A stretch of 64,000 nt of DNA, from positions 34 to 64,033 of the forward strand of contig JBEGVG010000064.1 in the NCBI GenBank assembly GCA_041178445.1. The letters are read 5' to 3'. Below the pieces are notes generated by a model. It saw nothing but the letters and a program-made list of their open reading frames with translations, did not search any database and had not been told where the DNA came from. The translations under genes and the position numbers were made by a program. Shown one piece after another: positions 4,048-59,281 of this stretch. Each line of letters opens with the position of its first letter. Position 1 is the first letter of the stretch. The stretch comes from Pseudomonadota bacterium (lineage in GTDB: Bacteria > Pseudomonadota > Alphaproteobacteria > Micropepsales > Micropepsaceae).

Positions 4048-4212
4048 AGCGGCGCGGGCTCGGCTGGCGGCCGCCCTCGCGGCTTTGCCGCTCGGTGCGG
4101 CGCTCAGTTTTTGTAAGCGCGGCTACACTGGGTGTGAGGCGTGGCAGCCCCCCTCGCTTCGCTCGAAGGGGCGCTCAGTTTTCGTAAGTTCGCTACGCTC
4201 ACTAACGAAAAC
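4048..4212. repeat. Two degenerate tandem hairpin units downstream of tRNA-Arg
   Basis: GCGCTCAGTTTTYGTAAG at 4100-4117 and 4171-4188 (17/18 identical), each preceded by CCCTCGC...CGCTCG. Confidence 0.65.
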
Positions 4213-4289
4213 TGGCGCACCCGATAGGATTCGAACCTATGACCTTCGCCTTCGGAGGGCGACACTCTATCCAGCTGAGCTACGGGTGC
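4213..4289 (-). tRNA. tRNA-Arg (CCG)
   Basis: GCACCCGTAGCTCAGCTGGATAGAGTGTCGCCCTCCGAAGGCGAAGGTCATAGGTTCGAATCCTATCGGGTGCGCCA; anticodon loop CTCCGAA. Confidence 0.97.
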
Positions 4290-4326
4290 TGACCGTCCGG
4301 ACCCTATAGCCCAGGCGGTCCAAAAG

Positions 4327-5412
4327 CTAAAGCGCTGCCCCAAGGCTTGTCAGCGCCTGACGGACCGTCCGTTCGCCCAGGGTCCAGACCGCCTGCTTCC
4401 AGGCCGGGGTATCGTTATAAAAAGCGTCGCGCATCAGCCTGGAAATCTCGGCGGCACGGCGGTCGTCCGGGGCGAAGCGGTCCTGCCAGTTGGCCAGGCG
4501 CAGGGTCCGGATCATCTGGTCCAGCGCGATGGTGCCCACTTCCAGTGCCGCGAATGTCAGCTCCACCCCCGGCAGCATCTGTTCGGCCCCGTGATCCAGC
4601 GTGCCGGTCAAAGGCGCGGAGAGGGACTCGCCTGCGGTGCCCGACACCACCATGTCGCCCCAGATGCGGCGCGCGCGGTCGTAGGCGGGCGTGCCGGGCG
4701 CCGCCTCGATGATCATTTCACCCGCGCCCGATTCCCCCAGACCGGTGTGGAAATCCATGGCGATGACCTTCCTGGCGCGCGACAGGTCCTCGCGCAGCAC
4801 GGCGCGCAACGCCTCCCCCGACCAGGCTTCGCGGTCGCCGCCATAAAACAGGCCTTCGGGGTGATTGTACTGGCCGGCGCTGAGCGCCTGCTGCCAGGCG
4901 GCGCGGCCATGGGCCTGGGCGTAAGCGGCCAGCGCGGCGTCGGCCCGCGCGAAGCCGGCATCGCTGACATCGCGCAGCGCGATCGCGTCGGCCAGTTCGT
5001 CGTAACCGGGATTGGCCGGGGGACAGGCGTGGTCGACAAAGTTGCGGTTGAGGTCGACATTGTTCTCGTCCACCGGCCGATTCCAGGCGAAGCCGAAGGG
5101 GTTGAGGGCATGGATCATCACCAGCCGCGCGCCATCCGGCGGCGACACGCCGCTTTGCAGAAGTCCCGTCATCACCCCGGAGCCGAAATAGCCTTCCACC
5201 CCATGGGTGCCGCAAATCAGCAGCAGTGCCTTCTGCGCGGTGCGCGGGCCCATGGCGCAGGCATCCAGGAATAGCGGCTTGCCATCGGGTCCCTTGGCGG
5301 AGGGATGCACGCGGCTGATCACATCCACGCCGCGCGCCTCGCAGGCGGCGATGAAGGCCTTGCGCGCGCCGCGATAGTCTTGCGGAAAATAGCTTTCCGG
5401 GGGCGTGGTCAT
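4327..5412 (-). CDS. M14-type metallopeptidase, DUF2817 family
   Basis: GTHGVEG, HALNPFGF, NVDLNRNF, DFHTGLG, ALEVGT motifs. Confidence 0.85.
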   Translation of the reverse strand: MTTPPESYFPQDYRGARKAFIAACEARGVDVISRVHPSAKGPDGKPLFLDACAMGPRTAQKALLLICGTHGVEGYFGSGVMTGLLQSGVSPPDGARLVMIHALNPFGFAWNRPVDENNVDLNRNFVDHACPPANPGYDELADAIALRDVSDAGFARADAALAAYAQAHGRAAWQQALSAGQYNHPEGLFYGGDREAWSGEALRAVLREDLSRARKVIAMDFHTGLGESGAGEMIIEAAPGTPAYDRARRIWGDMVVSGTAGESLSAPLTGTLDHGAEQMLPGVELTFAALEVGTIALDQMIRTLRLANWQDRFAPDDRRAAEISRLMRDAFYNDTPAWKQAVWTLGERTVRQALTSLGAAL

Positions 5413-5429
5413 CATCCTAGTCTAACCGC

Positions 5430-6215
5430 ATGTCGGCTTTCGGCGCATTGGAAGAATTGCGAAACCGCCCCATTGGCGATCTGACGGGCTTGCGCACATC
5501 GCGCCGCGGCTTTCGCCAGCGTATCGCCCTGGCCTCGGATCAGCCGCTTTTCGCCGAAGCGGTGGTGGAAGCGCGCGCCGTGGGGCTGGCGGGCGAGAAT
5601 TTCTATGCCGGCAGCCGCAACCCGCCCTATTGGCGCCCCATCGACGGCGCCACCGATAAATTGTGGTTGCGCAAGACGGCGGCCGAAAAGCTGGCGCGGG
5701 TCAATGCCCGCGCCGGCGCGGCGGGACTGGAACTGTTCCTGTTCGACGCCTGGCGTCCGCGCGCCGTTCAGGCCTATTTCCATGACGTTTGGATGCCGCG
5801 GGAACTGAAGCGGCGTGGCAGCACGCTGTCCGGCGCGGCGCTGAATGAAGAGGTGGAACGCTATTGGGCCGCGCCTACCGATGATCCGGCTTCGCCCGCG
5901 CCCCATGCCACCGGCGCGGCGACGGATCTCACTTTAAGATGGAAGAATGGCGAGGCGCTGTGGATGGGCTCGCTGTTCGACGATGTCACGGCGCTGGCCC
6001 ATCGCGACCGCTTTGAATCGCTCGGGGACGAAAACTTTTCCTTCTCCGATCAGGAAGCGCGCGCCAATCGGCGGCTGCTCCATTGGCTGATGACGGAAGA
6101 AGGCTTTGCCGGCCACCCCGATGAATGGTGGCATTTTTCCTGGGGCGACCAGTTGTGGGCCGCGCTGACGGATGCGCCCGCCGCGCATTACGGGTTGGCA
6201 TCCATTCCCGAATAG
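5430..6215 (+). CDS. ddpX: D-alanyl-D-alanine dipeptidase (M15D, VanX/DdpX family)
   Basis: FDAWRP, PHATGAATDLTL, EWWHFS. Confidence 0.88.
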   Translation: MSAFGALEELRNRPIGDLTGLRTSRRGFRQRIALASDQPLFAEAVVEARAVGLAGENFYAGSRNPPYWRPIDGATDKLWLRKTAAEKLARVNARAGAAGLELFLFDAWRPRAVQAYFHDVWMPRELKRRGSTLSGAALNEEVERYWAAPTDDPASPAPHATGAATDLTLRWKNGEALWMGSLFDDVTALAHRDRFESLGDENFSFSDQEARANRRLLHWLMTEEGFAGHPDEWWHFSWGDQLWAALTDAPAAHYGLASIPE

Positions 6216-8141
6216 TTATTCGAGGATCGGACGGAACGCCCCATCCCAGTCCGCACCCGGTGGATGTCTTTCGAAATAGGCGATCCGCGTCAGATGCAGG
6301 TCGTACATTTTCTGGCTGGCGCCTGACAGGCGGCGCCACTGAGCGATCAACTCGCGCGCCATCTGCCATTGCTGCTTGCGGATGGCCTGGAAGATATGAT
6401 CGTGAAACACGGTCAAGGCGCGGAACTTGGGCGAGGCGCGATACACCGACGAACCCATGATGGCATAAAGCGTGGTGGCCGGACCACTGGCGCCGACCGC
6501 GATGGAGTCAATCTCCAGAAAGGCAAAGCCGCGTTCGGCGGCGCGCTTGGTGTCTTCGGCCGCGATCAGCGCCGGGCCATATTGATGCGACAGCGCCTGG
6601 ACATGGCCCGCCATCGTCACCGCGCCGCCATGAACGCTGTAGCCCATCCGGCCATAGCCGCCGAACCCGCCGGCAATGACCTGGCCGCTGGCGATGCCGA
6701 TGCCGATCTCCACCAGCGGCGGCGCATCGGGCCCGCGATATTCCTGCGCCAGTTCCTCGTTGACGCGCGCTGCCATGATCGCCATGCCATTGGCCGCCTC
6801 GCAGGCATGCAGCGCATGGTCGCCATCATCCAGCGGCGCGTTCCAGAAGGCGGCGAAGCCATCGGCGGTCAGCCGGTCGATGGTGCCGCCATGCGCCAGC
6901 GCCTGGTCGATCAGCGGCGTCAGCACTTTCTGCATCAGGCGCGTGAAACCGGCGGCGTCGTTGTGATAATCCGCCGCCAGCCCCGAAAGGCCGCGCACGC
7001 CGCACACCAGATAGGTGACGGTGCGGATTTCGCCGTCGAGATTGAGCAGGGCCGGGCGGCGCGCGATCTTCTCGATGGTGGCGCGCGGCAGAGAGTCCGA
7101 AAACGCCATGCGCAAGCCGGCATAGGCCATGCGCAGATCCTGGATATAGGCCGCCGCGCCCGCGCCAAAGGCCAGCATCAGGGCCAGCGCCGGACTGGCC
7201 GCATCCATCAACAGACCCTGCTGCATGAAGAGATACCAGGACAGCGCGAACAGCGCGGCGCCGCCGCCCATCGCCAGGCCCGCCGCCCAGCCCAGGCCGA
7301 AGCGCAGCAGGAAAATCATGATCCCGCCCAGCACCAGCAGAGCTGCGGCTTCGGCCACCATCATCCAGCCGGGCCGCTGCAGCACATCGCGCACCAGAAG
7401 ATTGCCGATCGCTTCGGCCGTCACGCCGGCAAGGCTGGCGGCACCGAAAGGCGTCTTCACCATCGCGCCCTGTTGTCCCACCACCACGATCATGTCTTTC
7501 AGCGGTATGGCGTCCAGCGCATTGGGATTGAGAATCTGTTCGGACATGTTGGCCGCGTAGCGCAGCCAGAAGCGTCCGTCGCTGCCCGTGGGAATGATCC
7601 CGCCATCCGTTTCCAGCGCCGCGATGCCCACGCCGGCAAAGAAGCTCAGCGGATTGCGTTCATCGCTGATGACCGTGATGTCGGGCTTGCGCTGCGCCAC
7701 CCGCAAGGCTTCCGCCGTCATCCCCGGCACCAGCATGGCGTCCACCCGCACCGCCAAAGCGGCGCGGCGCACCACGCCGTCGGCATCGGGCATCAGGGCG
7801 GCGGCGGCCGATCCCGCCGCATGCGTTTCCAGCAGCGCCAGCGGCGCGGCGGCGGAGTCATGGCGCGGGACCTTGGAAAAGGGATCGCGGCTGCCGCGAT
7901 AGACAAAGCGCGCCTTGATGCGGGGGGCGCGTCCTTCGGCCCCCAGCGTCACCGGCACGATGCCGTCAATGTTCTGCAGCGCCACGGCAAGGCCGTGTCC
8001 GGGCTCGGGCAGTTGGGCCAGCGCGGCGCGTGCCGCCTTGTCACCGGGCGGCAGTTTGGCCGAAAGGCTTTGCGGGGAGGGCCCGTGTTGTAGGGGGGCG
8101 GTGAATACCACCAGCCGTGCGCCGGCCAGAAGGCGCGTCAC
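6216..8141 (-). CDS. CHASE2-domain membrane protein with degenerate class III adenylate/guanylate cyclase domain
   Basis: DADGVVRR CHASE2 motif, TM helices, GGTID...FWNAPLDD, IGIGIASG; start (GTG) uncertain and N-terminus looks truncated. Confidence 0.8.
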   Translation of the reverse strand: MTRLLAGARLVVFTAPLQHGPSPQSLSAKLPPGDKAARAALAQLPEPGHGLAVALQNIDGIVPVTLGAEGRAPRIKARFVYRGSRDPFSKVPRHDSAAAPLALLETHAAGSAAAALMPDADGVVRRAALAVRVDAMLVPGMTAEALRVAQRKPDITVISDERNPLSFFAGVGIAALETDGGIIPTGSDGRFWLRYAANMSEQILNPNALDAIPLKDMIVVVGQQGAMVKTPFGAASLAGVTAEAIGNLLVRDVLQRPGWMMVAEAAALLVLGGIMIFLLRFGLGWAAGLAMGGGAALFALSWYLFMQQGLLMDAASPALALMLAFGAGAAAYIQDLRMAYAGLRMAFSDSLPRATIEKIARRPALLNLDGEIRTVTYLVCGVRGLSGLAADYHNDAAGFTRLMQKVLTPLIDQALAHGGTIDRLTADGFAAFWNAPLDDGDHALHACEAANGMAIMAARVNEELAQEYRGPDAPPLVEIGIGIASGQVIAGGFGGYGRMGYSVHGGAVTMAGHVQALSHQYGPALIAAEDTKRAAERGFAFLEIDSIAVGASGPATTLYAIMGSSVYRASPKFRALTVFHDHIFQAIRKQQWQMARELIAQWRRLSGASQKMYDLHLTRIAYFERHPPGADWDGAFRPILE

Positions 8142-8226
8142 CCGGACCAGGTCATGAAGTACCCCAAGCGCGGGAAAAGCCCCGCGCCAGGCACCCTATT
8201 ATCGTTAATGGGACGCGGCTAGGCCG

Positions 8227-8661
8227 CTACTTGGCTGTCACGCGGATGGCGACTTGGGCCAAGAGGATCTTCGCGCCCTTCTTCTTCAGGGCGCGATCGG
8301 TGACCGCCTGCAGGCGGTCGGCAATGGCCCCGACATCGGGCTGGGTATCGGTGCGCACCATATTGGCGGTGAAGGCCATCAGGTTGCGGATATAGGCGTC
8401 GCGCAGCACCGGCAGCGAGCGGGTCACGACCGCGCGCATTTTCTCGTCCGGCACGTCGATGCCGGCGCCCACCATCAGCATTCCGCTGGCGCGGTTGTCG
8501 GCCACGATGGTGGTGTAGATCGGGTCCACCATGATGTAGCTCTTGGACTGGGTGGTCTTATGCTCCGGCGCTTTCTGGGCCTTGTCGCCGCTGTCGGCGG
8601 CGCGCACCGGCGAAATGGCCAGGGCGGCAAACAGCAGAGCGATCAGCGGCAGCTTCCTCAT
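8227..8661 (-). CDS. Exported FliL-like protein
   Basis: Signal peptide, YIMVDPIYTTIV, LPVLRDAY pattern typical of FliL-like proteins. Confidence 0.5.
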   Translation of the reverse strand: MRKLPLIALLFAALAISPVRAADSGDKAQKAPEHKTTQSKSYIMVDPIYTTIVADNRASGMLMVGAGIDVPDEKMRAVVTRSLPVLRDAYIRNLMAFTANMVRTDTQPDVGAIADRLQAVTDRALKKKGAKILLAQVAIRVTAK

Positions 8662-8822
8662 GACCGCCAGTAAGCGCCGGATTGGTAAATCGAATTTTAA
8701 CGGGGCGCGCAAAAGGCCCGATTAGGCCCTAAGCCAAGGCCGAAGCGGCACCCCGAAGGGGTGGTGTGAAGGCCGGGGCGCGGTGAAGTTAAGGTCGGTT
8801 CGGTGACCATCCCCTGGAGGGA

Positions 8823-8898
8823 TGGTGGAGCTGAGCGGAATCGAACCGCTGACCTCCTCATTGCGAACGAGGCGCTCTCCCAACTGAGCTACAGCCCC
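8823..8898 (-). tRNA. tRNA-Ala (CGC)
   Basis: GGGGCTGTAGCTCAGTTGGGAGAGCGCCTCGTTCGCAATGAGGAGGTCAGCGGTTCGATTCCGCTCAGCTCCACCA. Confidence 0.97.
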
Positions 8899-8999
8899 GA
8901 ACCGAGCGCGGTTTTTAGGGATGGGGGCTGGGGCCGTCAAGCCAGCCCAAGATTTTCAGGCTTTTCGGACCAAGTTCCTGCCGCTACAAGGGAATCACC

Positions 9000-9296
9000 A
9001 TGATGATGAACCCAATCGCCGCCCTGCTGATCCAGGTCCTGGAAATCTACAAATGGATCCTGATCGCCTCCGTGATCGTGAGCTGGCTCACCGCCTTCAA
9101 CGTCATCAATGTCCATAACAATTTCGTCCGCAGCCTGCTGCACATCCTGCAGGCGCTGACCGAACCGGTGCTGGCGCCCATCCGCCGCATCCTGCCCGCA
9201 ATGGGGGGGCTGGACCTGTCGCCCATCGTGGTTTTCGTGCTGATCTGGTTCCTGCAATATACGATCCGCTGGGCGTCGTTTAACTACGGGCTATAG
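9000..9296 (+). CDS. yggT: YggT family membrane protein
   Basis: SWL, LTEPVLAPIRRILP.MGGLDLSPIV. Confidence 0.92.
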   Translation: MMMNPIAALLIQVLEIYKWILIASVIVSWLTAFNVINVHNNFVRSLLHILQALTEPVLAPIRRILPAMGGLDLSPIVVFVLIWFLQYTIRWASFNYGL

Positions 9297-9300
9297 CGTC

Positions 9301-10188
9301 ATGACCGCCACGGTGATCGACGGCAAGGCCAGCGCCGCCCGGGTGCGCGAGAAGATCGCGGCCTATACCGCCGAGCTCAAGGCCAAGCACAATCTGCAGC
9401 CCGGGCTTGCCACCGTGCTGGTGGGCAGCGACCCGGCTTCGGAAGTCTATGTCCGCAACAAGCGCAAGACCGCCGAAGCCATCGGCTTCAAGTCGGTGCA
9501 TGTCGAACTGCCCGCTAATGTCGCGCAAGCCGAACTCTTGTCACAGGTGAAGGCGCTGTGCGCCGATACGAGCGTGCATGGCATCCTGGTGCAATTGCCC
9601 TTGCCCAAGCATCTGGACGAGGCCGCGGTGCTGGACGCGCTGGACCCCGCCAAGGACGTCGATGCGCTGACGCCGACCAATGCCGGGCTGCTGCTGTCGG
9701 GCCGCGCCCATCTGGTGTCCTGCACGCCGGCGGGCGTGATGCTGCTGTTGAAAGAATATGCCGGCGACATTGCCGGCAAGGAGGCGCTGGTGATCGGCCG
9801 CTCGCTCTTGTTCGGCAAGCCGGCGGCGCAATTGCTGCTGGCGGCGAATGCCACCGTCACCATGGCCCATTCGCGCTCAAAGGATTTGCCGGGACTGGCG
9901 CGGCGCGCCGATATTCTGGTGGCGGCGATCGGCAAGCCCGAATTCGTCAAGGGTGACTGGGTCAAGCCGGGCGCGACTGTCATCGATGTCGGCATCAACC
10001 GCGTCGATGCGGGCGAGGGCAAAACCAAGCTGGTCGGCGACGTGGATTATGAATCCGCGAAGGCTGTCGCGGGTGCCATTACCCCGGTGCCTGGCGGCGT
10101 AGGCGCCATGACCATCATCTGCCTGATGCACAACACGCTGATCGCGGCGTGCGCGCAGAACGGGCTCCCGCTACCCAAAGCGCTTTAA
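9301..10188 (+). CDS. folD: Methylenetetrahydrofolate dehydrogenase/cyclohydrolase
   Basis: IDGK, YVRNK, GILVQLPLP, KDVD, ITPVPGGVG. Confidence 0.97.
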   Translation: MTATVIDGKASAARVREKIAAYTAELKAKHNLQPGLATVLVGSDPASEVYVRNKRKTAEAIGFKSVHVELPANVAQAELLSQVKALCADTSVHGILVQLPLPKHLDEAAVLDALDPAKDVDALTPTNAGLLLSGRAHLVSCTPAGVMLLLKEYAGDIAGKEALVIGRSLLFGKPAAQLLLAANATVTMAHSRSKDLPGLARRADILVAAIGKPEFVKGDWVKPGATVIDVGINRVDAGEGKTKLVGDVDYESAKAVAGAITPVPGGVGAMTIICLMHNTLIAACAQNGLPLPKAL

Positions 10189-10190
10189 TC

Positions 10191-10231
10191 CCCACTGTCA
10201 TGGCCCGCACTCGGCGGGCCATGACAGTGGG
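10191..10231. repeat. GTCATGG-type REP-like hairpin (18-bp perfect stem), probable bidirectional terminator
   Basis: CCCACTGTCATGGCCCGC-ACTCG-GCGGGCCATGACAGTGGG between convergent folD and senC. Confidence 0.8.
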
Positions 10232-10233
10232 GA

Positions 10234-10845: not shown

Positions 10846-10919
10846 GCTTTTTCCGTTTGGCTGGTCATGCTCTAATCCGGATTGCCTTTCCAGGGAAGCA
10901 TTCAGTGGCACGCAAGGAA

Positions 10920-12293: not shown

Positions 12294-12334
12294 AAGTTTG
12301 ACGGTTTGTTAAAAGGGTACTAAAGGCCCCCGCA

Positions 12335-14640: not shown

Positions 14641-14647
14641 ATCACTA

Positions 14648-14740
14648 TCACCATGGGCGGCCTTGAGCCGCCCATCCAGAGTCAAAGGCTCGATTTCAGT
14701 TTGAAGTTCTGGATGGCCGGGTCAAGGCCGGCCATGGTGA
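14648..14740. repeat. REP-like doublet (CCATGG...ATCCAG / CTGGAT...CCATGG)
   Basis: TCACCATGGGCGGCCTTGAGCCGCCCATCCAG ... CTGGATGGCCGGGTCAAGGCCGGCCATGGTGA. Confidence 0.85.
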
Positions 14741-14746
14741 GGGTGG

Positions 14747-14812
14747 TTACAAGCTGCCCTTCGAAGACGGCGACGCGCCGTCCAATCGTTCGTCGGGCGT
14801 AATGGCCTGGCG
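14747..14812 (-). pseudogene. Displaced, synonymously divergent copy of the last 22 codons of hisB
   Basis: Encodes [21 protein letters not shown], identical to the hisB C-terminus; 56/66 nt identical to 14861-14926. Confidence 0.93.
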
Positions 14813-14860
14813 CCCCGCGAGCGGAGGCGAGCAAAAATAATGCTTTGCGACAGGCCAGCG

Positions 14861-15448
14861 TTACAGGCTGCCTTTGGAGGAGGGAGACGCGCCGTCCAAG
14901 CGTTCATCCGGCGTTATGGCCTGGCGCAAAGCCCGCGCCAGACCCTTGAAGCAGGTCTCGACGATGTGATGGCTGTTGTCGGCATACAGATTCTCGATGT
15001 GGAGGCACGCGCCGGAATTCTGGGCGAAGGCCTGGAACCATTCCTTGAACAGCTCGGTGTCCATCTCCCCCAGCTTGGGCTTGGGGATCGTCACCTTCCA
15101 GATCAGATAGGGGCGGTTGGACAGGTCCAGCGCCACGCGGGTCAGGGCCTCGTCCATCGGGATCAGGGCCGAGCCGAAACGGGTAATGCCGGAAAAATCG
15201 CCCAGCGCCTGTTTCACCGCCTGGCCGATGACGATCGCGGTGTCCTCGGTGGTGTGGTGATAGTCGACATGCAGGTCGCCGGTGGCGCGCACTTTCAGGT
15301 CGATCATGGAATGGCGCGCGAAGCTTTCCAGCATATGGTCCAGGAACCCGATGCCGGTATCGATATCGGCATCGCCGGCCCCGTCCAGGTCGAGGGAGAC
15401 GGCTATCTCGGTCTCGCGGGTCTTTCGTTCGACGGTGGCGGTGCGCAT
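14861..15448 (-). CDS. hisB: Imidazoleglycerol-phosphate dehydratase
   Basis: [33 protein letters not shown]. Confidence 0.97.
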
Positions 15449-15465
15449 TCGGTCTCTTTCAGCAG

Positions 15466-15567
15466 CTCAGGCCCGCCTCCCCATCGTGCGCGTCAGCGCA
15501 CAAGAGGGGAGGTGGTTTCAGCGATCGAGGCGCGCCAAGCGCCGAGAGGAAGCTGAAACCGGAGGGG
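15466..15567 (-). repeat. CCCCTCC...GGGGAG palindromic intergenic element, copy A
   Basis: Reverse complement shares CCCCTCCGGTTTCAGCTT, GCTGAAACCACCTCCCC and GGGGAGGCGGnCCTGAG with 16912-17007. Confidence 0.88.
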
Positions 15568-15628
15568 AAAATCGAACAAACCGCTGTATAGCACGGGTTT
15601 CGGGGTGGGGAATCCCCTGTGGCGCCAG

Positions 15629-16905: not shown

Positions 16906-16911
16906 AGCGAC

Positions 16912-17007
16912 CCCCTCCGGTTTCAGCTTTCGCGAAGCTTCGCTTCGCACGCTGAAACCACCTCCCCCTCAGATGCGCTGCGCGCATGAAGGGGAGGCGG
17001 ACCTGAG
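16912..17007 (+). repeat. CCCCTCC...GGGGAG palindromic intergenic element, copy B (inverted relative to copy A)
   Basis: Same stems as 15466-15567, different loop sequences. Confidence 0.88.
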
Positions 17008-17057
17008 TAACCGCCCGCAGGCTCGCGCCTGCGGGCGGAATGCTGTCTAAGGCACCG

Positions 17058-18675: not shown

Positions 18676-18676
18676 A

Positions 18677-28467: not shown

Positions 28468-28767
28468 ATGGCCGTTTTCATGCGTCTTGTCAGCCTGATC
28501 CTGATCGACATCGCCCTGATGCTGCTGGGTGCGGACGCCATTTCCAGCCTGGAACGCGGCGGGGCGCTGACCGTGCGCAGCCTGGGCACGATATGGGGCA
28601 TGTTCGATCAACCGCATCTCGACGCTTTCAAGAGCTGGGTCCAGAACAACCAGCCTGCCATGGCGCAAGGCGTCTATTCGTTTCTCGCTTTGCCCGGCTG
28701 GGCCGCGACCGGCGTGCTGGGTGTAATTCTGGCGTTCATCTTCGGCCGAAAAGCCGGCCCCGAATAG
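28468..28767 (+). CDS. Small membrane protein, unknown function
   Basis: Two hydrophobic segments, LALPGWA motif, host-like codons. Confidence 0.7.
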   Translation: MAVFMRLVSLILIDIALMLLGADAISSLERGGALTVRSLGTIWGMFDQPHLDAFKSWVQNNQPAMAQGVYSFLALPGWAATGVLGVILAFIFGRKAGPE

Positions 28768-28866
28768 GCGCGTTCTTTTGCGCCCTGAGTGCGTTGCTCG
28801 TCGCTCATGGGCTATACGCCCACATCGCTCCTCGCTCCTGCTCAGGTCACAAAATCGACGCGCCTA
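28765..28866. repeat. MITE-like palindromic element whose terminal inverted repeats contain both flanking stop codons
   Basis: TAGGCGCGT...ACGCGCCTA ends; inner TTTTG/CAAAA and CCTGAG/CTCAGG pairs; core TTGCTCGTCGCT-[hairpin]-CGCTCCTCGC. Confidence 0.7.
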
Positions 28867-29430
28867 GGGTTGGCGATTGGCTCCGGGAATCCAGAGCACG
28901 TCGCCCTTGCCGCCGTCATTGGCGGCGCGGGCCATCACGAACAGGTGATCCGAAAGGCGGTTGGCATAATGCAGCGCCGCCGGGTTGATATCTTCCTGCG
29001 CGGCCAGCGCGGCGATTGCTGCTTCCGCCCGCCGCGCGATGGCGCGCGCCATATGCAGATGCGCCGAAAGCGGCGTGCCCCCCGGCAGCACGAATGAGGT
29101 GAGCGGCGACAGCTGTTCGTTCATCGCGTCGATCTCGCGCTCCAGCCGTTCCACCTGAACGGACGCGATACGAAGACGGCTTTCGCCCTTGCGGCCATCT
29201 TCGGGGGCGGAGAGGTCGGCGCCCAGATCGAACAGGTCGTTCTGGATGCGCGCCAGCGCAGCATCGAACGCACCCGCTGCCAGTCGGGCCACGCCTATCG
29301 CGCTGTTGGCCTCATCCACTGCACCGATGGCGGCTATCCGCAGGGATGCCTTGGAAACCCGGCTGCCGTCGGACAGCCCGGTTTGCCCGGAATCGCCGCC
29401 TTTTGTGTAGATTCGATCGAGTCTAACCAC
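28864..29430 (-). CDS. pduO: Cob(I)alamin adenosyltransferase, PduO type
   Basis: IYTKGGDSGQT, IQNDLFDLGADL, FVLPGGT, NRLSDHLF; GTG start. Confidence 0.93.
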   Translation of the reverse strand: MVRLDRIYTKGGDSGQTGLSDGSRVSKASLRIAAIGAVDEANSAIGVARLAAGAFDAALARIQNDLFDLGADLSAPEDGRKGESRLRIASVQVERLEREIDAMNEQLSPLTSFVLPGGTPLSAHLHMARAIARRAEAAIAALAAQEDINPAALHYANRLSDHLFVMARAANDGGKGDVLWIPGANRQP

Positions 29431-29516
29431 TGAAAAATCCGCCCTTGCCGGGCAAATCTTAGCTTGTATGATCCCGCCAATCTTCCCCAATTTGCGCGCT
29501 TTTTAGGTTCTTTCGC

Positions 29517-32581: not shown

Positions 32582-32688
32582 CTCCATGGCCGGCCTTGGT
32601 GAGTAGCGACAGCGTACGAACGCCATCCAACTTCTCTTTTCGCACAGATGTCGCGATGGATGGGCGGGTCAAGCCCGCCCATGGTGAG
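32582..32688. repeat. REP-like doublet with an insertion in the first unit
   Basis: CCATGGCCGGCCTTG-[GTGAGTAGCGACAGCGTACGAAC]-GCCATCCA ... TGGATGGGCGGGTCAAGCCCGCCCATGG. Confidence 0.8.
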
Positions 32689-32691
32689 GAG

Positions 32692-43751: not shown

Positions 43752-43853
43752 TTGTCATGGCCCACCGAGTGTGGGCCATCCAGTTGAGGTTTGCTCAACA
43801 CTCTCCGGGCAATCTGCGTCACCTGGGTGGCCCGCATTCGCGGGCCATGACAA
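43752..43853. repeat. GTCATGG REP-like doublet
   Basis: TTGTCATGGCCCACCGAGTGTGGGCCATCCAG ... CTGGGTGGCCCGCATTCGCGGGCCATGACAA. Confidence 0.85.
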
Positions 43854-49876: not shown

Positions 49877-49894
49877 CCGGCCGATAAACCCGCC

Positions 49895-50083
49895 ATGGGA
49901 AACTTTCTTGTCGCCGTGGCCATCGGGATCGTCTTTGTCGTCCTGTGCCTGGGCCTTTACACCCTGATGAAGGGCGGCGACACCGCCCGCAGCTGGTCCA
50001 ATAAACTGATGCGAATCAGGGTATTAGCCCAATTTGTCGCGATCATTATCATCATGATCGTGGTCTATCTGTCCCAGCGTTGA
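49895..50083 (+). CDS. HIG1-like twin transmembrane small protein
   Basis: SNKLMRIRVLAQFVAI. Confidence 0.88.
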   Translation: MGNFLVAVAIGIVFVVLCLGLYTLMKGGDTARSWSNKLMRIRVLAQFVAIIIIMIVVYLSQR

Positions 50084-50137
50084 AGATTCAGCGCGCCGCT
50101 TATATGTAAGCGGCCTTCAAACCCGCAAAGTAGAGCC

Positions 50138-51535: not shown

Positions 51536-51541
51536 TCTTAC

Positions 51542-51604
51542 TTGTCATGCCCGCGAAAGCGGGCATCCATCGGGCTTGGATTCCCGCCTGCGCGGGAATG
51601 ACAA
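51542..51604. repeat. GTCAT...ATCCA / TGGATTCCCGC...GGGAATGAC REP-like doublet
   Basis: TTGTCATGCCCGCGAAAGCGGGCATCCA ... TGGATTCCCGCCTGCGCGGGAATGACAA, between convergent genes. Confidence 0.9.
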
Positions 51605-51607
51605 AGG

Positions 51608-52549: not shown

Positions 52550-52554
52550 AGGCC

Positions 52555-54777
52555 CTAGAAAAAGCTCACCGGATCGACGTCCACCGCGACGCGCACCGAC
52601 GCCGGCACTTTTATACCGGCCAGCCAGCTTTTCAGATAGGCCTGCACATCCACGCTTTTGGCCGCCTGCACCAGCAGCCTCTCGCGGGTCTGGCCGCGCA
52701 GCAGCGCATAGAAAGCCGGCGTCGGGCCCCACACTTTCACGTCCCGGGCATTGGGCGCGCACTTGCCCAGCTGGCGGGCGATCTCACGCACCGCTTCGCC
52801 GTCATAACCACTGACCACCAAGGCCGCCAACCGCCCATAGGGCGGCGAGGCATAGGCTTCGCGCGAACTGCGCTCCTGCTCATAGAAACCATCGCGGTCG
52901 CCCCGGGCCAGGGCCTGCATCACCGCGTCTTCGGGATTGCGGGTTTGCAGCAAAACCAGTCCCGGCTTTTCGGCGCGTCCGGCGCGGCCCGATACCTGAT
53001 GCAGCAACTGAAACGTACGCTCGCGGGCGCGCAAATCGCCGTCGCTGCCGCCCAGATCGGCATCCACCACGCCCACCAAGGTCAGCTGCGGAAAATGATG
53101 TCCCTTGGCGACGATCTGGGTGCCGATCAGCACATCGATCTCGCGCCGCGCCATGGCGCGGATCGCGCCTTGCGTCTCAGCGGGGCCCTGCAGGATGTCG
53201 GATGAGGCGATGGCAAAGCGCGCATTGGGAAAGAACAGCGCGAATTCCTCGGCCACCCGTTCCACGCCAGGGCCACAAGCGATCAGCGTGCCGGTCTCGT
53301 TGCATTGCGGACAGCTGGACGGCATCGGCAGCTGATAGCCACATTGATGACAGGCCAGGCGCTTTTTGTATTTGTGCTCCACCAGCCAGGCCGAGCAATG
53401 CGGGCAGGTGAATTTGTGGCCGCAGGCTTCGCACAAGGTAAGCGGCGCATAGCCGCGGCGGTTGAGGAACAGCATCGCCTGCTCGCCCGCCGCCAGGGTG
53501 GTTTCCAGCGCCGCGCGCAGGGGCGGCGACAGCCATTGCGCCTTGCGTTCCGCATCGGGTGCATCACGCGCATGACGCAGATCGATCAATTCCACGCGCG
53601 GCATCTGCGCCACGCCATGGCGTGAAACCAGCTTTAAATGGCTGTAGCGGCCCTGGCATGCATTGACGAAGCTTTCCAGCGACGGGGTGGCGCTGGCCAG
53701 CACCACCGGACAATTCTCGATCCGGGCCCGCACCACCGCCATGTCGCGGGCGTGATAGATGGCGCCTTCCTGCTGCTTGAAGGCCTGTTCGTGTTCTTCA
53801 TCGACGATGATCAGGCCCAGTACGGGAAAGGGCAGAAAAAGCGAGGAGCGCGCCCCCACGATCACCCGCGCTTCGCCATTCATCACGGCGCGATAGGTGC
53901 GGCGGCGTTCCTTTTGCGACAGGTCGCTGTGCCATTCGGCGGGCCGCACCCCGAAGCGCGCGGCGAAGCGTTCCAGGAACTGCACCGTCAGCGCGATCTC
54001 GGGCAGCAGGATCATCACCTGCCTGCCACCTTCCAGCGCCGCCGCGATGGCTTCGAAATAGACTTCGGTCTTGCCCGACCCGGTGACGCCGTCCAGCAGA
54101 TGGGCGGAGAATTTTTCCTGCGCCACTGCATCGCGCAGCATCTTGGCAGCAGCGGTCTGATCATCGCTGAGCGTCGGCGCGGCAAATCCGGCTTCCGGCT
54201 GCTTGAAGGGCGCGAACTCCGGCAGCTCGGTGGGAATCAGCGCACCGGCGGTGACCAGCCCGCGTACCACGGCGGCTGACACATTGGCGTCCTCCGCCAA
54301 TCCGCTGACGCTACGCGCCAAGCCATCGCTGGCCACGTCCAGCGCCCGCACTCGCGCCGCCGACATGCGCGGCGGGGTGATCGAGCCGCGCACATAGGCG
54401 ATGCGCTTGGTTTCCGGCTCGAACGCGCCACGCGACCTGAGCGCCATTGCCAGGATCGCGCCCGGCGGGTTCAAGGTGTAATCGGCCACCCAATCAATGA
54501 AGTCGCACAATTTCTCCGGCAGGCGCGGCGCGCCATCCAGCGGCACGGCCTCTTTCAGCCGGTTGTCGCCGATCGTGCCCTCGGCTTTTCCCCACACCGC
54601 ACCCAGCACTTCACGGTTCCCCAGGGGCGCCGCCACCAGCGTGCCGCGCGGAACATTGACCCCCGGCGGCAGCTTGTAGTCATAGGCCCCGGCCAGCGGC
54701 AGCGGCAGCAGCACGCCGACAACCGGTTTGGGCTGGATTTCCGCATGCGAAGCGGGGTTTAAGCGGGCGCGTATCAT
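52555..54777 (-). CDS. priA: Primosomal protein N'
   Basis: GVTGSGKTE, IVDEEH, LASATPS, four CxxC, QVSGRAGR. Confidence 0.98.
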   Translation of the reverse strand: MIRARLNPASHAEIQPKPVVGVLLPLPLAGAYDYKLPPGVNVPRGTLVAAPLGNREVLGAVWGKAEGTIGDNRLKEAVPLDGAPRLPEKLCDFIDWVADYTLNPPGAILAMALRSRGAFEPETKRIAYVRGSITPPRMSAARVRALDVASDGLARSVSGLAEDANVSAAVVRGLVTAGALIPTELPEFAPFKQPEAGFAAPTLSDDQTAAAKMLRDAVAQEKFSAHLLDGVTGSGKTEVYFEAIAAALEGGRQVMILLPEIALTVQFLERFAARFGVRPAEWHSDLSQKERRRTYRAVMNGEARVIVGARSSLFLPFPVLGLIIVDEEHEQAFKQQEGAIYHARDMAVVRARIENCPVVLASATPSLESFVNACQGRYSHLKLVSRHGVAQMPRVELIDLRHARDAPDAERKAQWLSPPLRAALETTLAAGEQAMLFLNRRGYAPLTLCEACGHKFTCPHCSAWLVEHKYKKRLACHQCGYQLPMPSSCPQCNETGTLIACGPGVERVAEEFALFFPNARFAIASSDILQGPAETQGAIRAMARREIDVLIGTQIVAKGHHFPQLTLVGVVDADLGGSDGDLRARERTFQLLHQVSGRAGRAEKPGLVLLQTRNPEDAVMQALARGDRDGFYEQERSSREAYASPPYGRLAALVVSGYDGEAVREIARQLGKCAPNARDVKVWGPTPAFYALLRGQTRERLLVQAAKSVDVQAYLKSWLAGIKVPASVRVAVDVDPVSFF

Positions 54778-54836
54778 GGGTTAGAATGGGGTACGCCCCG
54801 CCCCAATCCCAGGTCAATAAATAAGGTCTTTGGTCC

Positions 54837-55490
54837 ATGAAAATCTTCCTCGACACCGCCGATGTGGCGGAAATCCGCGAATATGCCGCCAGCGGCCTGG
54901 TCGATGGCGTCACCACCAATCCCAGCCTCGCCGCCAAGACGGGCCGCGATTATGTCGAATCGCTGAAGGAAATCTGTTCGGTGGTGCCCGGCGCGGTGAG
55001 CGGCGAGGTGCTGGCCACCGACTATGACGGCATGATGAAGGAAGCGGCGATCCTGACCAAGATCGCCAAGAACATCGCGGTGAAAGTGCCGCTGACCTGG
55101 GACGGGCTGAAGGCCTGCGCCGCGCTGGCCAAGGACGGCACCATGGTCAATGTCACGCTGTGCTTCTCGCCGGTGCAGGCCTGGATGGCCGCCAAGGCGG
55201 GCGCGACGTTCATTTCGCCCTTCATCGGCCGCGTCGATGATGCGGGCGAAGACGGTATGGGACTGATCCGCGATATCCGCACCGTCTATGACAATTACGG
55301 CTTCAAGACGGAAATCCTGGCGGCTTCGATCCGCAGCATCAGCCATGTGCGCGAGTCGATTCTGGCGGGCGCCGATGTCGGCACCATGCCGAGCGACATT
55401 TTCAAGAAGCTGATCAGCCATCCCTTGACCGACAAGGGCCTGGCCGCCTTTGTCGCCGACGCCAAAAAGGCCAATGTCGTCATAAAGTGA
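54837..55490 (+). CDS. tal: Transaldolase / fructose-6-phosphate aldolase (TalC/Fsa family)
   Basis: FLDTA, GVTTNPS, VKVP, NVTLCFS, ISPFIGR. Confidence 0.9.
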
Positions 55491-56404
55491 GCGAAAGCGC
55501 CGACACGCTTCGCAAAAGCTGGCTTTCGATGCTGGCGCATGAGCGGCGCGCTTCGCCCAACACCTTGCGCGCTTACGGCGATGACGTGGCGCGCTTCATC
55601 GGTTTCCAGGCGCAGCATGTCGGCGGGGCGGTGACGGCCAAGGCGCTGGCCAAGCTGAAGCCCGCAGACATCCGCGCCTTTGTTTCCAGCCGCCGCAGCG
55701 AAGGCTTGGGCGCGGGCGGGGTGCAGCGGGCGCTGGCGGCGGTGCGCAGCTTCTACAAATTCCTCGCCCGCGAAGGCATCCTGGAGAATGCCGCCGCTCG
55801 GTCCATCCGCACCCCGCGCGTGCGCCGTCCGCTGCCGCGCCCGCTGACGGCGGTGGATGCGGCGCGCGCCATCGAGGAAGCCGGCGAACATAATGTGGAA
55901 TGGCTGGGGGCCCGCGATGCGGCGCTGCTGACGCTGCTCTATGGCGCGGGCCTGCGCATTTCCGAGGCGCTGGGCCTCAAGCGCGGCGACGTGCCGCTGG
56001 GCGAAAGTCTGACGGTGGTCGGCAAGGGCCGCAAGGAACGCAGCGTGCCGATGCTGCCTTTGCTGCGCGAAGCGCTGCAGACTTATGCCGACAAGATTCC
56101 CTTCACCGGGGCGCCGTCCTCGCCGCTGTTCCTGTCGCGGCGGGGCCTGCCGATGAGCGCGCGCGAGGCGCAAGGCTTGATGCAGAAACTGCGCGGGCGC
56201 TTGGGTTTGCCCGAAAAGGCCACGCCCCATGCCCTGCGCCATTCCTTCGCCACCCATATCCTGCAAGGCGGCGGCGACCTTCGCAGCGTGCAGGAATTGC
56301 TGGGGCATTCCTCGCTCTCCACCACCCAGATCTACACCGCGATCGAGACCAGCCAGCTGCTGAAAACCTACGAAAATGCGCATCCCAGAGCCCGGCGTGG
56401 CTGA
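55487..56404 (+). CDS. xerC: Chromosomal tyrosine recombinase XerC
   Basis: [41 protein letters not shown]. Confidence 0.9.
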
Positions 56405-56479
56405 TATTGCGGGCACCAAAGCCGCGGGCTAGGCTCGCGCCCGCTGACAATTGGGCGCATCGCCCGCTGGGGAGAATTC

Positions 56480-57730
56480 ATGAAGAAGTTGATCTGTGCC
56501 GCCGCACTGTTGTGCGGCGCGGTGCCGGCTTTTGCGCAACAACCCGATGGCCTGATCCTGCCCAAGGGCTTTCATGCCCAGGTGGTGGCTGACAATCTGG
56601 GGCCCATCCGCCACATGGCGCTGCGCGGCAACGATATCTATGTCTCGACCCGCCACGGCGCCAAGGACCCTTCCGTCGGCATCATCGCGCTGCGCCTGGC
56701 GCCCGATCACACCGTGCTGCAAAAGGCCAATTTCGGCGTGGGCACGGTCGACCAGGGCACCGGCATCAAGGTGTGGAAGGGTTCGCTCTATGCCGCCTCG
56801 GGCACCCAGGTTCATCGCTTCACGCTGGACGACATGCTGGTCCCCACCAAATCCGAAGTGATCGTGGACGGTATCACGCCCAGCAATCACCCCCTCGCAT
56901 TTGACGGCAAGGGCAGCCTGTATGTCTCGATCGATGGCGGCGGCGGCGTCAACAATTGCCCCGACCCCAAGAATCCCAAGGAAGCCAAGCCCAAGGGTCT
57001 CATGCCCTGTCCGCTGCTGGCCTTCCGCGGCGGCATCTGGCGTTTTGACGAAGCCAAGGCAGGCCAGAAGCTGGCCGACGGCGAACACTTCGCCACCGGC
57101 ATCCGCAATTCCAGCGCGATGGACTCGCGCCAAGGCGACGGCCTCTATCTGACCAATCACGGCCGCGACGGCACCTCCAAGGGCTGGCCCGAACTTCTCA
57201 CCCAGGCCGATGACGATGCGATCCCCGACGAGATGTTCAAGGTCGCCAAGGGCACCGACATGGGCTGGCCCTATACCTATTGGGATGGGGTGAAGAAGGT
57301 TCGCCTGTCGGCGCCGGAATATGGCGGCGACGGCAAGACGGCGGTGACGGACGCAAAGTACGCCAAGCCGGTGGTGGCGTTCCACCAGCTGCGCCCCGCC
57401 ACGCTCGACATGACCTTCTATAACGGCACCCAGTTTCCGCGGAGCTATCGCGGCGGCGCCTTCCTGGCCATGCATGGCGGCAACGATCCGGCGATCGTGC
57501 CGGGCGGCCGCAAGGGCTATAATGTGATGTTCGTGCCGTTCGTGGGCGGCAAGCCCGGCACCCCGGTGGCCTTCGCCGAAGGCTTTGCCGGCCCTAGTCC
57601 TGAGCACAAGAATACCAAGCAGGCCACCTACCGCCCGGTGGGCGTGGCGGTGGCCCCGGACGGCGCGCTGTTCGTCGCCGATTCCCGAAAGGGCCGGATC
57701 TGGCGGATTTCCTATACCGGCAAGCCCTGA
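56480..57730 (+). CDS. Exported glucose/sorbosone dehydrogenase-like beta-propeller
   Basis: Signal peptide, ATGIRN, GWP, AFLAMHG, YRPVGVAVAPDGALFVADS..GRIWRI. Confidence 0.85.
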   Translation: MKKLICAAALLCGAVPAFAQQPDGLILPKGFHAQVVADNLGPIRHMALRGNDIYVSTRHGAKDPSVGIIALRLAPDHTVLQKANFGVGTVDQGTGIKVWKGSLYAASGTQVHRFTLDDMLVPTKSEVIVDGITPSNHPLAFDGKGSLYVSIDGGGGVNNCPDPKNPKEAKPKGLMPCPLLAFRGGIWRFDEAKAGQKLADGEHFATGIRNSSAMDSRQGDGLYLTNHGRDGTSKGWPELLTQADDDAIPDEMFKVAKGTDMGWPYTYWDGVKKVRLSAPEYGGDGKTAVTDAKYAKPVVAFHQLRPATLDMTFYNGTQFPRSYRGGAFLAMHGGNDPAIVPGGRKGYNVMFVPFVGGKPGTPVAFAEGFAGPSPEHKNTKQATYRPVGVAVAPDGALFVADSRKGRIWRISYTGKP

Positions 57731-57809
57731 TTAAGGGGTTTTGGGCTAGCTTAGGCGTTGCGCCGGGGGTGCGGGATCAGTAGTTTCCGCCACCTCCGGC
57801 CAACCGGAA

Positions 57810-57885
57810 GCCGCCTTAGCTCAGTCGGTAGAGCATCGCATTCGTAATGCGGGGGTCGCCAGTTCGAGTCTGGCAGGCGGCACCA
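57810..57885 (+). tRNA. tRNA-Thr (CGT)
   Basis: GCCGCCTTAGCTCAGTCGGTAGAGCATCGCATTCGTAATGCGGGGGTCGCCAGTTCGAGTCTGGCAGGCGGCACCA. Confidence 0.97.
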
Positions 57886-57960
57886 TTCAATTGCCCCGCA
57901 AAGCGGGTCAATTGAATGACAAGCGGCGGCTAGCGTCAGCGTAGCGCCGCCGCGCGTCAG

Positions 57961-57986
57961 TGCCCGCGAGAAATCGCGGGCTTTTT
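57961..57986 (+). terminator. Terminator after tRNA-Thr (third of three hairpins)
   Basis: GCCCGCGA-GAAA-TCGCGGGC-TTTTT. Confidence 0.75.
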
Positions 57987-57989
57987 AAT

Positions 57990-59213
57990 GCCAAGCCCAT
58001 CACAAAGTGAAATGAGCATTTAGCAAGCTCCATAGTGGCGGGGGTTCGAAATCATGACCTAGCGCTTTAGCAGATATGAGGTGAAGCTTAGGCACGGGCG
58101 TGGAGTCGGGTAGTACGTGTCTAATGAAGGGGGCGGCAGATGGCGCAATTCTCGTCAGAGCAAATAGCGACAAATATAAAGAACGAATCAATATTTTGTC
58201 CGCACACTCGTTACCTTAGAGAAAAGAAGCAGCAAAGCGACAATCCGCCTTCGACTCCGGCCGGTGCTGAGCAAGGCACCTTTGTACACTATACATCTGC
58301 GGAAGCGGCCCTTCAGATCATCAGAGATAAGCGTCTCTGGATGAGAAACACGACGTGTATGGCGGACTACAGCGAGGTACAGCGCGGCTACTCGATTCTT
58401 AGAACTTCTTCCGTGCGAATGACAGCGAGAACATGAAGCGTCTAATCGCTGTGACTGATGTTATACAGCCAGGCTTGGCGGTCAATGCTGTGCAAGTGTT
58501 CGATCAGCTGTGGAATAAGCATCGCTACCAGATATACATAACTTCCGTTGCTGAACATGATCGAGTCACGGAGGACGTCAACGGCCGCCCCTCAATGTGG
58601 CGCGCTTTCGGAGCAACTCCGCGTGTGGCCCTAACTTTTTCCATTCCATGGAGCTCATCTGCGACACATGCATTGAAAATAATGTTCAATCCTGTGAGCT
58701 ACCTTGATGAAGCAGGTGCATATGCAGATCTAAATGCTGCTATAGGCAATATTGAGCGCGAAACTGAGTACTTGAAGAGCCGTCCGCCCGAGGAGGTCCA
58801 TGGGTGGGTGTTTCAGATGCTGCTGACAGCAGTCTGTTGCATTAAGCACGAAGGCTTTTCAGAAGAGCGAGAATGGCGAGGCGTATACTCTCCATTTTTC
58901 GGTAGTGGGCGGCCATCAGAAACGTCGGCGTTGGAGAAAAGTTTGAAAGTGATCCAAGGCGTACCTCAAACTGTCTATCAGATACCGCTCGACGTATCGG
59001 TTAGTGCCGGACTTGAAGACTTGGATATGGTGCGCTGTTTGCGCAAAATTATTATAGGCCCGACATCGTATCCATGGGTGATGTACGAGGCGTTCGTCGA
59101 GGCATTGACGGACCTAAAGGCTCCAGACCCTACCAGCATGGTGGCCGTCACCTCCTTGCCGCTCAGAGGATAATTCTGCGGGCCTTAGTTTATCTTCCGC
59201 GTTGCCACAACAC
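57990..59213. mobile_element. AT-richer islet at the tRNA-Thr 3' end; no integrase or att repeat seen
   Basis: Abrupt shift to A/T-ending codons and lower GC than the flanks (judged by eye). Confidence 0.55.
58140..59173 (+). pseudogene. DUF2971-domain gene, frameshifted near 58401-58404
   Basis: HYTSAEAA..I...LWMRN...MADYSE in frame 1; SMWRAFG, KHEGFSEEREWR, IIIGP in the -1 frame. Confidence 0.75.
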
Positions 59214-59281
59214 CTAACGCGCCAGCAGATCAGACCTGAGCTGGGATTTCACGATCGGTGCCTTGCCGCTCTGGCTGTGCT
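59214..59281 (-). pseudogene. Decayed copy of the 3' end of the 60398-62572 gene
   Basis: 39/43 nt identical to 60398-60440 including the TAG, then continued similarity with a net 9-nt deletion. Confidence 0.85.

Follow-up and report, generated by a model that had tools for sequence, protein, structure and literature searches.

Stop-codon palindromes, CCA-pairing tRNA trailers and duplicated gene tails: probably three distinct phenomena at 3' ends in a Rhizomicrobium-like genome

The window analysed here, a stretch of 64,000 nucleotides (nt) of contig JBEGVG010000064.1 (G000:C64:34-64033), belongs to a Rhizomicrobium-like metagenome-assembled genome (MAG) of the Micropepsaceae (assembly 2.49 Mb, 128 contigs, 63% GC, 97% complete). 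It harbours six sites at which hairpins, palindromes or repeats meet the 3' end of a gene (Table 1). The hisB gene and a gene encoding a 753-aa protein are each followed by a second copy of their own tail. The genes for tRNA-Arg(ccg), tRNA-Ala(cgc) and tRNA-Thr(cgt) are followed by hairpins of which one arm starts inside the CCA end of the tRNA, and a palindrome lies between two convergent genes with the stop codons of both as its termini. An earlier note on this DNA had suggested that one insertion process, driven by an enzyme acting in trans, targets 3' ends, leaves hairpins complementary to its target and keeps the target gene functional. All six sites were indeed found in the sequence, and the genes at the insertion sites are intact. 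A single mechanism unifying them is, however, not supported. With a probability of roughly 0.6 the six sites comprise (A) an inverted-repeat element, family C, (B) tRNA trailers that pair with CCA and (C) two recombinational insertions that duplicate a gene tail; no enzyme common to the three was found. Matches to Rfam 15 at gathering score in the window were limited to the three tRNAs, and no other RNA family was found.

Table 1 Features at the six 3'-end sites of the window
Feature	Position	Strand	Remarks
Second far-arm copy (4096-4128) and GC-rich core hairpin CCCCTCGCTTCGCTCGAAGGGG (4150-4171)	4096-4171	+	Beyond the tRNA-Arg hairpin
tRNA-Arg trailer hairpin	4176-4214, extended 4166-4222	-	10-bp exact arms 4176-4185 / 4205-4214
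tRNA-Arg(ccg)	4213-4289	-	
tRNA-Ala trailer hairpin ACCAUCCCU / GGGGAUGGU	8806-8826	-	9-bp stem including ACCA of the tRNA end
tRNA-Ala(cgc)	8823-8898	-	
Displaced hisB tail copy	14746-14813	-	85% identity to 14860-14927
46-nt insert X	14814-14859	-	Between the two hisB tails
Functional hisB tail	14860-14927	-	Gene 14861-15448
Family C inverted-repeat element, resembling a miniature inverted-repeat transposable element (MITE)	28765-28866	+	Palindrome with TAG and CTA termini; TA + GGCGCG arm, TTTTG...CAAAA inner stem, central hairpin, CGCGCC arm + TA
tRNA-Thr(cgt)	57810-57885	+	
Two-hairpin insertion (~75 nt) after tRNA-Thr	57884-57953	+	Hairpin 1 57884-57918, hairpin 2 57923-57953
Displaced, decaying tail copy of the 753-aa gene	59214-59281	-	79% identity
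Xylose-isomerase-like TIM-barrel gene	59288-60367	-	Insert flanked by the two tails
Functional tail of the 753-aa gene	60398-60474	-	Gene 60398-62659

The palindrome at the two stop codons is one copy of a dispersed repeat. Comparison of the window with its own genome revealed five families (A-E) of interspersed repeats of ~100 nt, and the family C match (28761-28865) lies at the palindrome. A profile of 13-mer repeats was too noisy at 63% GC and a regular-expression search for further family C copies was noisy as well; copies were collected with nhmmer instead. Family C is ~105 nt long, non-coding and present in 21 copies in its own genome, with 6-11 matches per genome in the five closest relatives. 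Its terminal inverted repeats read (TA)G(G)CGCG ... CGCG(C)C(TA), with an inner stem TTTTG.../...CAAAA. The TAG and CTA ends of the window copy are the stops of an open reading frame (ORF; 28468-28767, plus strand) and of a convergent cobalamin adenosyltransferase gene (28864-29490, minus strand). The copy folds with -43.3 kcal/mol (z -4.3) as plus strand and with -53.9 kcal/mol (z -7.4) as minus strand. The left end is flush with the stop codon of the co-directional gene in 18 of the 21 own-genome copies, and in 13 of the 21 the stop of a convergent gene lies 0-12 nt from the right end.

Thirty family C copies from the five closest relatives were compared with the corresponding sites of this genome. 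In at least eight pairs the relative has the element and this genome an empty site (L132, L133/L142, L136, L139, L144, L145, L152, L154). The empty sites consist of two convergent stops that abut or overlap (TTAA, CTAA, CTAG, TAGCTA). At three loci (L133, L139, L152) an empty TAA corresponds to a filled TAG, and the G is therefore part of the element. TA was found on both flanks, compared to the empty own-genome site, at L133, L142, L136, L145 and L154, while copy L138 was inserted between CC and GG. The locus in the window is itself empty in G023 (gaaTAGTCAgcgg) and G001 (gaaTAATCAgcgg) and filled in G016, G019, G046 and G057; of the cobalamin adenosyltransferase genes, those of this genome and of G016 have two extra codons and take their stop from the CTA of the element.

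It is proposed that family C is a non-autonomous element that inserts at TA and probably duplicates it, as judged from the five clean filled/empty pairs. With a terminal repeat that starts with G and ends with C, either junction, read inward, would give TAG. A stop codon (TAA or TAG) that received the element in its TA would therefore be rebuilt, and the gene would survive. Copies would persist flush with stop codons, mostly between convergent genes, because such an insertion rebuilds the stop. The G of the element together with the flanking TA would thus account for the stop-codon termini without any copying of the target beyond TA. The entire element is predicted to fold into a single long hairpin, the stems of which appear to be maintained by compensatory change. 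An alignment of 47 copies shows strong covariation at single pairs (for example GC in 19 and AU in 18 copies, GC 31 and CG 11, AU 30 and GC 14), and arms at the same locus have changed together, with AGGCGCGG/CCTCGCGCCT in G001 versus AGCACGAGG/CCTCGTGCTT in G063 and TGA...TCA in G041 versus TAG...CTA in this genome.

Family C may be added to the TA-type MITEs as a new member, with the TA duplication itself drawn from the five clean pairs and TA on both sides in only 23 of the 47 copies. The latter count speaks against the proposal, and so do several other observations. The G.U wobbles favour the minus-strand RNA, opposite to the strand of the flush gene. A symmetric, TA-duplicating insertion does not account for the strong bias in orientation, with 18 copies flush at the left end and 2 at the right. 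Moreover, no parent transposase was found: neither this genome nor any of its five closest relatives has an IS630-type DDE gene (PF13358), and the IS630-like elements in the 18 of 61 genus genomes that do harbour PF13358 have ends without similarity to family C. An IS630-type parent was rejected on these grounds. MAGs often lose copies of insertion sequences (IS).

RUP of Streptococcus pneumoniae and the Correia/NEMIS elements of Neisseria are TA-duplicating MITEs of the IS630/Tc1-mariner type (PMC2229807 (review)). Family C resembles them in size (~100-150 nt), in its lack of coding capacity, in having terminal inverted repeats and a TA insertion site, in the many copies scattered near gene ends, in transcripts that would fold into one long hairpin and in presence/absence differences among relatives. 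It differs from them in that no parent IS with matching ends was found, in the flush position at stops with its strong orientation bias and in the covariation of its arms.

Repetitive extragenic palindromic (REP) elements and the bacterial interspersed mosaic elements (BIMEs) are mobilised by RAYT (Y1 HUH) transposases. Like these, family C is a palindromic extragenic repeat that gathers at 3' ends, often between convergent genes. However, it forms a single long hairpin with TA flanks rather than a unit of 20-40 nt with a GTAG-type head, and the genome has no PF01797 gene (see below). A different observation concerns the gene end at C108:29067-29197, which was compared with loci L137 and L153: G023 and G063 hold a family C copy there, and this genome holds another multi-hairpin element with GCTCGCCCAGGCTCGCGGCG and CTAGCGTCAGCGTAG, making the site a hot spot for repeats of more than one type.

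The two tail duplications are of another kind. When the final 45 nt of every feature were compared with the following 1.5 kb for direct repeats, with a swap null, hisB and the 753-aa gene ranked first and second among 2,443 features; six features scored 18 or higher, compared to 0.9 in the null. The two hisB tails encode the same 21 residues and stop, and all 10 differences are synonymous. The displaced tail has kept the ancestral surroundings, TAA-CCACYC-family A, that G001 shows, and in both genomes a family A copy is found 6 nt past the ancestral hisB stop. Insert X holds GGCCTGTCGCAAAGC (14841-14855), complementary at 14 of 15 positions to hisB GCTTTGCGCCAGGCC, followed by a T-rich run and a core, GCTCGCCTCCGCTCGCGGGG (14814-14833), of the pattern GCTCGC-N4-GCTCGC-GGGG. 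The junction lies inside a shared heptamer, GCGCCAG, and the core followed by CGCCAG is common to the hisB insert and the trailers of tRNA-Arg and tRNA-Pro. The hairpin at hisB was rejected as evidence by itself, since about six matches of 14/15 are expected per genome by chance. A homologous core follows hisB in G014 (with a 13-nt tail repeat), at L049 and at L051 (no repeat). Downstream of hisB, locus L049:1745-2110 (MAG PE_dung12) has three or more tandem units, which a run of N interrupts; every unit combines a 41-nt hisB tail with a 58-nt core-bearing spacer. Neither insert nor repeat was found at hisB in G009, L047, L048, L050 and L052, and G001 is likewise empty.

At the 753-aa gene the insert is a gene and no hairpin is involved; the tail duplications show no consistent link with hairpins. 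The site in G023 has no TIM-barrel gene; there the stop of the 753-aa gene is directly adjoined by a transporter-like ORF of 433 aa in convergent orientation. The adjoining region between tRNA-Thr and the displaced tail (57990-59213) has a low GC content (56%) and harbours a DUF2971 gene (58433-59173); in G023 its place is taken by the transporter-like ORF.

Both duplications look like rare, one-off recombinational insertions that provided the gene with a replacement tail. Incoming DNA would have recombined within the gene, bringing its own 3' end and extra sequence (46 nt at hisB, the 1.1-kb TIM-barrel gene at position 60398); its far end would then have been joined upstream of the resident tail, which was pushed downstream. 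The route may have been homology-facilitated illegitimate recombination or attachment site (att)-type integration. Two findings sit uneasily with one-off events of this kind. A hisB tail duplicate lies beside the same core in three lineages, at lengths of 13, 41 (at least three copies) and 68 nt, which is odd for independent accidents. In addition, TIM-barrel homologues in nine relatives never lie beside a homologue of the 753-aa gene, and no donor arrangement was found.

Known counterparts are site-specific integration at the 3' ends of tRNA and other genes with duplication of att, as in genomic islands and remnants of the CIME (cis-mobilizable element) type, and homology-facilitated illegitimate recombination during transformation. 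The duplications could accordingly be attL/attR remnants of tyrosine-recombinase integration, in which an element carried the 3' end of its target, lost its interior at hisB and used GCGCCAG, which mimics the 3' end of tRNA-Arg, as a secondary att core. As in att integration, a direct repeat of the target 3' end, including the stop codon, flanks the insert at both genes, relatives have an empty site and the gene remains intact through its replacement tail. Furthermore, the hisB junction falls exactly in GCGCCAG, the tRNA-Arg end and also part of the trailer cassette. Two other tRNA genes fit such a history. In G055 (L170) a partial direct copy of the 3' half of tRNA-Arg(ccg) (TTCGAAC...ATCCGGGTGCGCCA) follows ~85 nt downstream, after a hairpin-bearing insert of ~85 nt, in the same tail-insert-tail layout as at hisB. 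Outside the window (G000:C50:8449-12633), the first 57 nt of the trailer of tRNA-Lys(ctt) are repeated 4.1 kb downstream with 95% identity, as if these were the termini of an integrated island. However, an insert of 46 nt cannot be autonomous, and the repeats are 79-85% identical instead of sharing one identical core. At hisB there is also an inverted copy of boundary sequence, a feature foreign to att integration. No recombinase gene was found within or beside the inserts, which contain 46 nt or the single TIM-barrel gene, with only the DUF2971 gene in the adjoining island, and no integrase lies beside either site, integrases not having been searched genome-wide. Integration remnants are on balance an unlikely origin, with about the odds of a minority view.

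The tRNA sites differ again, in that the pairing with the gene end exceeds chance. The last 10 nt of tRNA-Arg are paired in its trailer hairpin (-32.9 kcal/mol, z -6.2). The same hairpin is found in G017, G045, G016, G061, G014 and G012. The trailers of G023 and G052 form different hairpins in which GCGCCA is still paired: GCGCCA is followed by TATCGCGC-TTC-GCGCGATA and TGGCGC in G023, and by TTCGTTCGC-TTCG-GCGAACGAA and TGGCGC in G052. The two-hairpin layout beyond tRNA-Arg recurs after tRNA-Pro(tgg) on contig C113. Hairpin 1 after tRNA-Thr starts in the CA of the tRNA end (-21.6 kcal/mol, z -4.25), hairpin 2 has the loop CTAGCGTCAGCGTAG, and a canonical terminator (57962-57986) lies downstream of both. 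The site is empty in G023, where CCA-TTGAAAA is followed directly by the terminator common to both genomes, without the insert of ~75 nt. The hairpin after tRNA-Ala is weak (-14 kcal/mol, z -2.5). Its stem varies among species (TCCC/GGGA, ACCG/CGGT, ACCT...AGGT) while the pairing with the tRNA end is constant, and the motif CCGAACCGA lies downstream of it in many of them.

For a census, trailers were counted with a stem of at least 7 bp that includes at least 2 bases of the terminal trinucleotide. Swapping trailers among tRNAs was uninformative as a null since every tRNA ends in CCA; CCA was exchanged for each of the 64 trinucleotides instead. CCA-pairing trailers follow 7 of the 36 tRNAs of this genome against a control mean of 0.8, an enrichment of ~9-fold, and CCA ranks first of the 64, with NCA next best. 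Within the genus such a hairpin follows tRNA-Ala(cgc) in 18 of 24 orthologues (control mean 1.3) and tRNA-Arg(ccg) in 10 of 21 (0.8-1.2). Among tRNA-Ala(cgc) genes sampled from 28 other alphaproteobacterial families, 1-3 of 28 qualified, equal to the control (0.45-1.2). Pairing is not limited to the window: this genome has two tRNA-Leu genes with homologous trailers, in each of which an inverted segment matches the acceptor strand of its own gene, and the trailer of tRNA-Ala(ggc) (G000:C8:14235-14400) contains a perfect inverted copy of 23 nt, comprising the last 15 nt of the tRNA and 8 trailer nt, with a 36-nt loop.

Selection on an RNA stem appears to explain these hairpins better than a target-copying insertion does. 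Selection is favoured because pairing is kept as the sequence turns over, because changes are compensatory and because the feature is unseen in the other families sampled for tRNA-Ala(cgc). Many tRNA genes of the genus would then have a trailer hairpin with the CCA end of the tRNA itself, sometimes 4-15 nt of the tRNA, as its 5' arm. The tRNA side is fixed, so the trailer side would track the tRNA sequence. Selection would act on the precursor RNA, and a likely role is a signal for 3'-end processing or termination that sequesters CCA. Old hairpins may be replaced by new palindromes, in some cases through the arrival of a cassette with two hairpins. Loss of the CCA-adding enzyme was rejected as a reason for protecting CCA, since this genome and 29 of 30 relatives have a member of the enzyme family.

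Monocistronic tRNA genes of E. coli (leuX, proK/L/M) have intrinsic terminators directly after the gene (PMC2811032, PMC5291269). Like these, the trailers described here form a stable hairpin within a few nt of the encoded CCA that must be removed for tRNA maturation. Unlike these, the stem takes in CCA and up to 15 nt of the tRNA, a U-run is lacking and the feature was unseen in the other families sampled for tRNA-Ala(cgc). No description of CCA-pairing tRNA trailers was found in a limited literature search, and they are apparently undescribed.

Three points weigh against selection on the stem as a full account. The three hairpins of the window are followed by GAGCGCC, TCACCGA and ACAAGCG and are thus not canonical intrinsic terminators. 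The orthologue counts within the genus are not independent, due to kinship. Finally, trailers with perfect palindromes of 14-23 bp, in G023, G052, G046 (14 bp) and G057 (18 bp) and at C8 and C34 of this genome, are hard to build by point mutation and hint at a generative mechanism; this suggests that some hairpins were created or imported whole. Template switching during replication of quasi-palindromes could be such a mechanism, making new perfect palindromes and extending old ones outward, so that the free flank is overwritten with the complement of the tRNA end. It would fit the perfect palindromes, which are unrelated in sequence and have loops of 3-5 nt at orthologous tRNA ends or beside tRNAs in the four relatives, as well as the 14-bp stem with 3-nt loop at a tRNA end on C34, the long arms on C8 and the joint change of arms in family C copies at one locus. 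Yet a general mutational process should also hit the tails of protein genes, which show no excess, and the signal is absent in the other families sampled for tRNA-Ala(cgc), where nothing suggests that replication differs. Many stems are, moreover, short and imperfect with the conserved motif downstream, which fits long-term selection, and template switching is an improbable explanation for the sites as a whole.

A GCGC-GACA/GTCA-GCGC tip characterises a second hairpin that was found repeatedly, behind various tRNAs and in various genomes. It was tentatively considered that the genus has its own 3' tRNA module, a CCA-sequestering hairpin often joined by this second hairpin, which would reflect either a distinct way of forming tRNA 3' ends or a small cassette that homes to CCA ends. 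This idea is a possible one, more doubtful than selection on the stem. If a cassette homes to CCA, the hisB insert, with the same core and a mimic of the tRNA-Arg end, would be an off-target event.

In the process envisaged in the earlier note, a single enzyme acting in trans, be it a HUH transposase of the RAYT type or a nuclease (small GIY-YIG or DUF559), would place hairpin DNA at 3' ends, with one arm made as a copy of the target. This process can be judged from protein-gene ends and from the gene content. Genome-wide counts used the stop positions, and these alone, of 2,420 genes predicted by a codon-likelihood gene caller. The note had asked for a census of hairpins at such ends, and no excess of target-complementary ones was observed. 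Between the last 24 nt of genes and the next 100 nt there were 107 exact inverted matches of at least 8 nt, compared to 97 in a tail-swap null; between the last and the next 100 nt, 6 matches scored at least 12, compared to 6.2. The 5' arms of hairpins of at least 8 bp start mostly 3-26 nt past the stop, with a dip just upstream of it and no spike on it. Of these hairpins, 38 overlap a stop codon; 5 of these belong to family C and several more have arms of the TA(G/A)CGCG type. Protein-gene ends carry no general target-complementary signal.

The search for an enzyme gave no better support. The 97%-complete genome has no match to the Y1/RAYT (HUH) transposase family PF01797, for which controls matched in 6 of 14 genomes, and a RAYT/Y1 transposase was rejected on this basis. 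A link with small GIY-YIG nucleases was rejected as well, the single such gene having no repeat beside it. None of the suggested enzymes was found to be shared by the sites, DUF559 genes and integrases not having been searched. In G019 (L007), a family A half-element just past the hisB stop is followed by a small ORF (GFVYILASARNGTLYIGVTSNL...) that by its translation is a candidate GIY-YIG nuclease. This ORF would suit a one-enzyme process, as would the small inserts with a flank-complementary arm at tRNA-Thr, at tRNA-Arg (G023, G052) and at hisB (here and in G014), and the core followed by CGCCAG at hisB, tRNA-Arg and tRNA-Pro. However, the apparent target arm of family C is merely TA and the element's own G, and the TIM-barrel gene was inserted without a hairpin. 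A single enzyme has only slight odds. That everything is ordinary, with intrinsic terminators touching stop codons or CCA by chance and with chance repeats, is least probable of all: hairpin starts distributed as for terminators, tail complementarity equal to the null and the weak tRNA-Ala hairpin agree with it, but not the CCA pairing, ~9-fold over control and unseen in other families, the three tRNA hairpins without a U-run, the 21-copy family with filled and empty sites or the two extreme outliers among tail repeats.

Parts of the original suggestion therefore survive. Presence/absence differences, which the earlier note had proposed as a check, were found at at least eight family C loci, at the tRNA-Thr trailer (versus G023), at hisB (versus G009, G001, L047 and L050) and at the TIM-barrel gene (versus G023). 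Insertion at 3' ends thus holds for these sites, but not as a single process. That one hairpin arm is host target sequence holds for tRNA CCA ends, far above expectation. It does not hold for the stop codons, nor for hisB, where the match is within chance.

The remaining repeats of the window lie outside the six sites. Family A (14642-14744, half copy 32654-32691) is ~94 nt long with two inverted hairpins (TCACCATGGGCGGCCTTGAGCCGCCCATCCAGA ...); the genome has ~25 copies of it, and relatives have many. Family B (15463-15573, 16909-17013; ~105 nt, ~30 copies) has a multi-stem layout, CCGCCTCCCC-hairpin-GGGGAGGTGGTTTCAGCG-hairpin-GCTGAAACCGGAGGGGG, in which the stems vary yet remain paired; it usually lies ~5-15 nt from a gene stop and has no Rfam match. 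Families D (43752-43853; 4-7 copies) and E (51541-51603; ~4 copies) are paired hairpins of the TGTCATGGCCCAC...GTGGGCCATCCAG and TTGTCATTCCCGCGCAGGCGGG type and resemble family A. Families A, D and E have the appearance of paired REP hairpins.

A TA-inserting repeat with an arm that starts with G can sit in stop codons harmlessly, which would be a simple reason for its pile-up flush with gene ends, and family C is a caution for the annotation of gene ends and terminators. The two tail duplications would be clean natural examples of insertion that preserves a gene by means of a spare 3' end. The CCA-pairing trailers, a strong signal, are the more interesting part of these findings; through them the formation of tRNA 3' ends in this uncultured group would become open to direct test.

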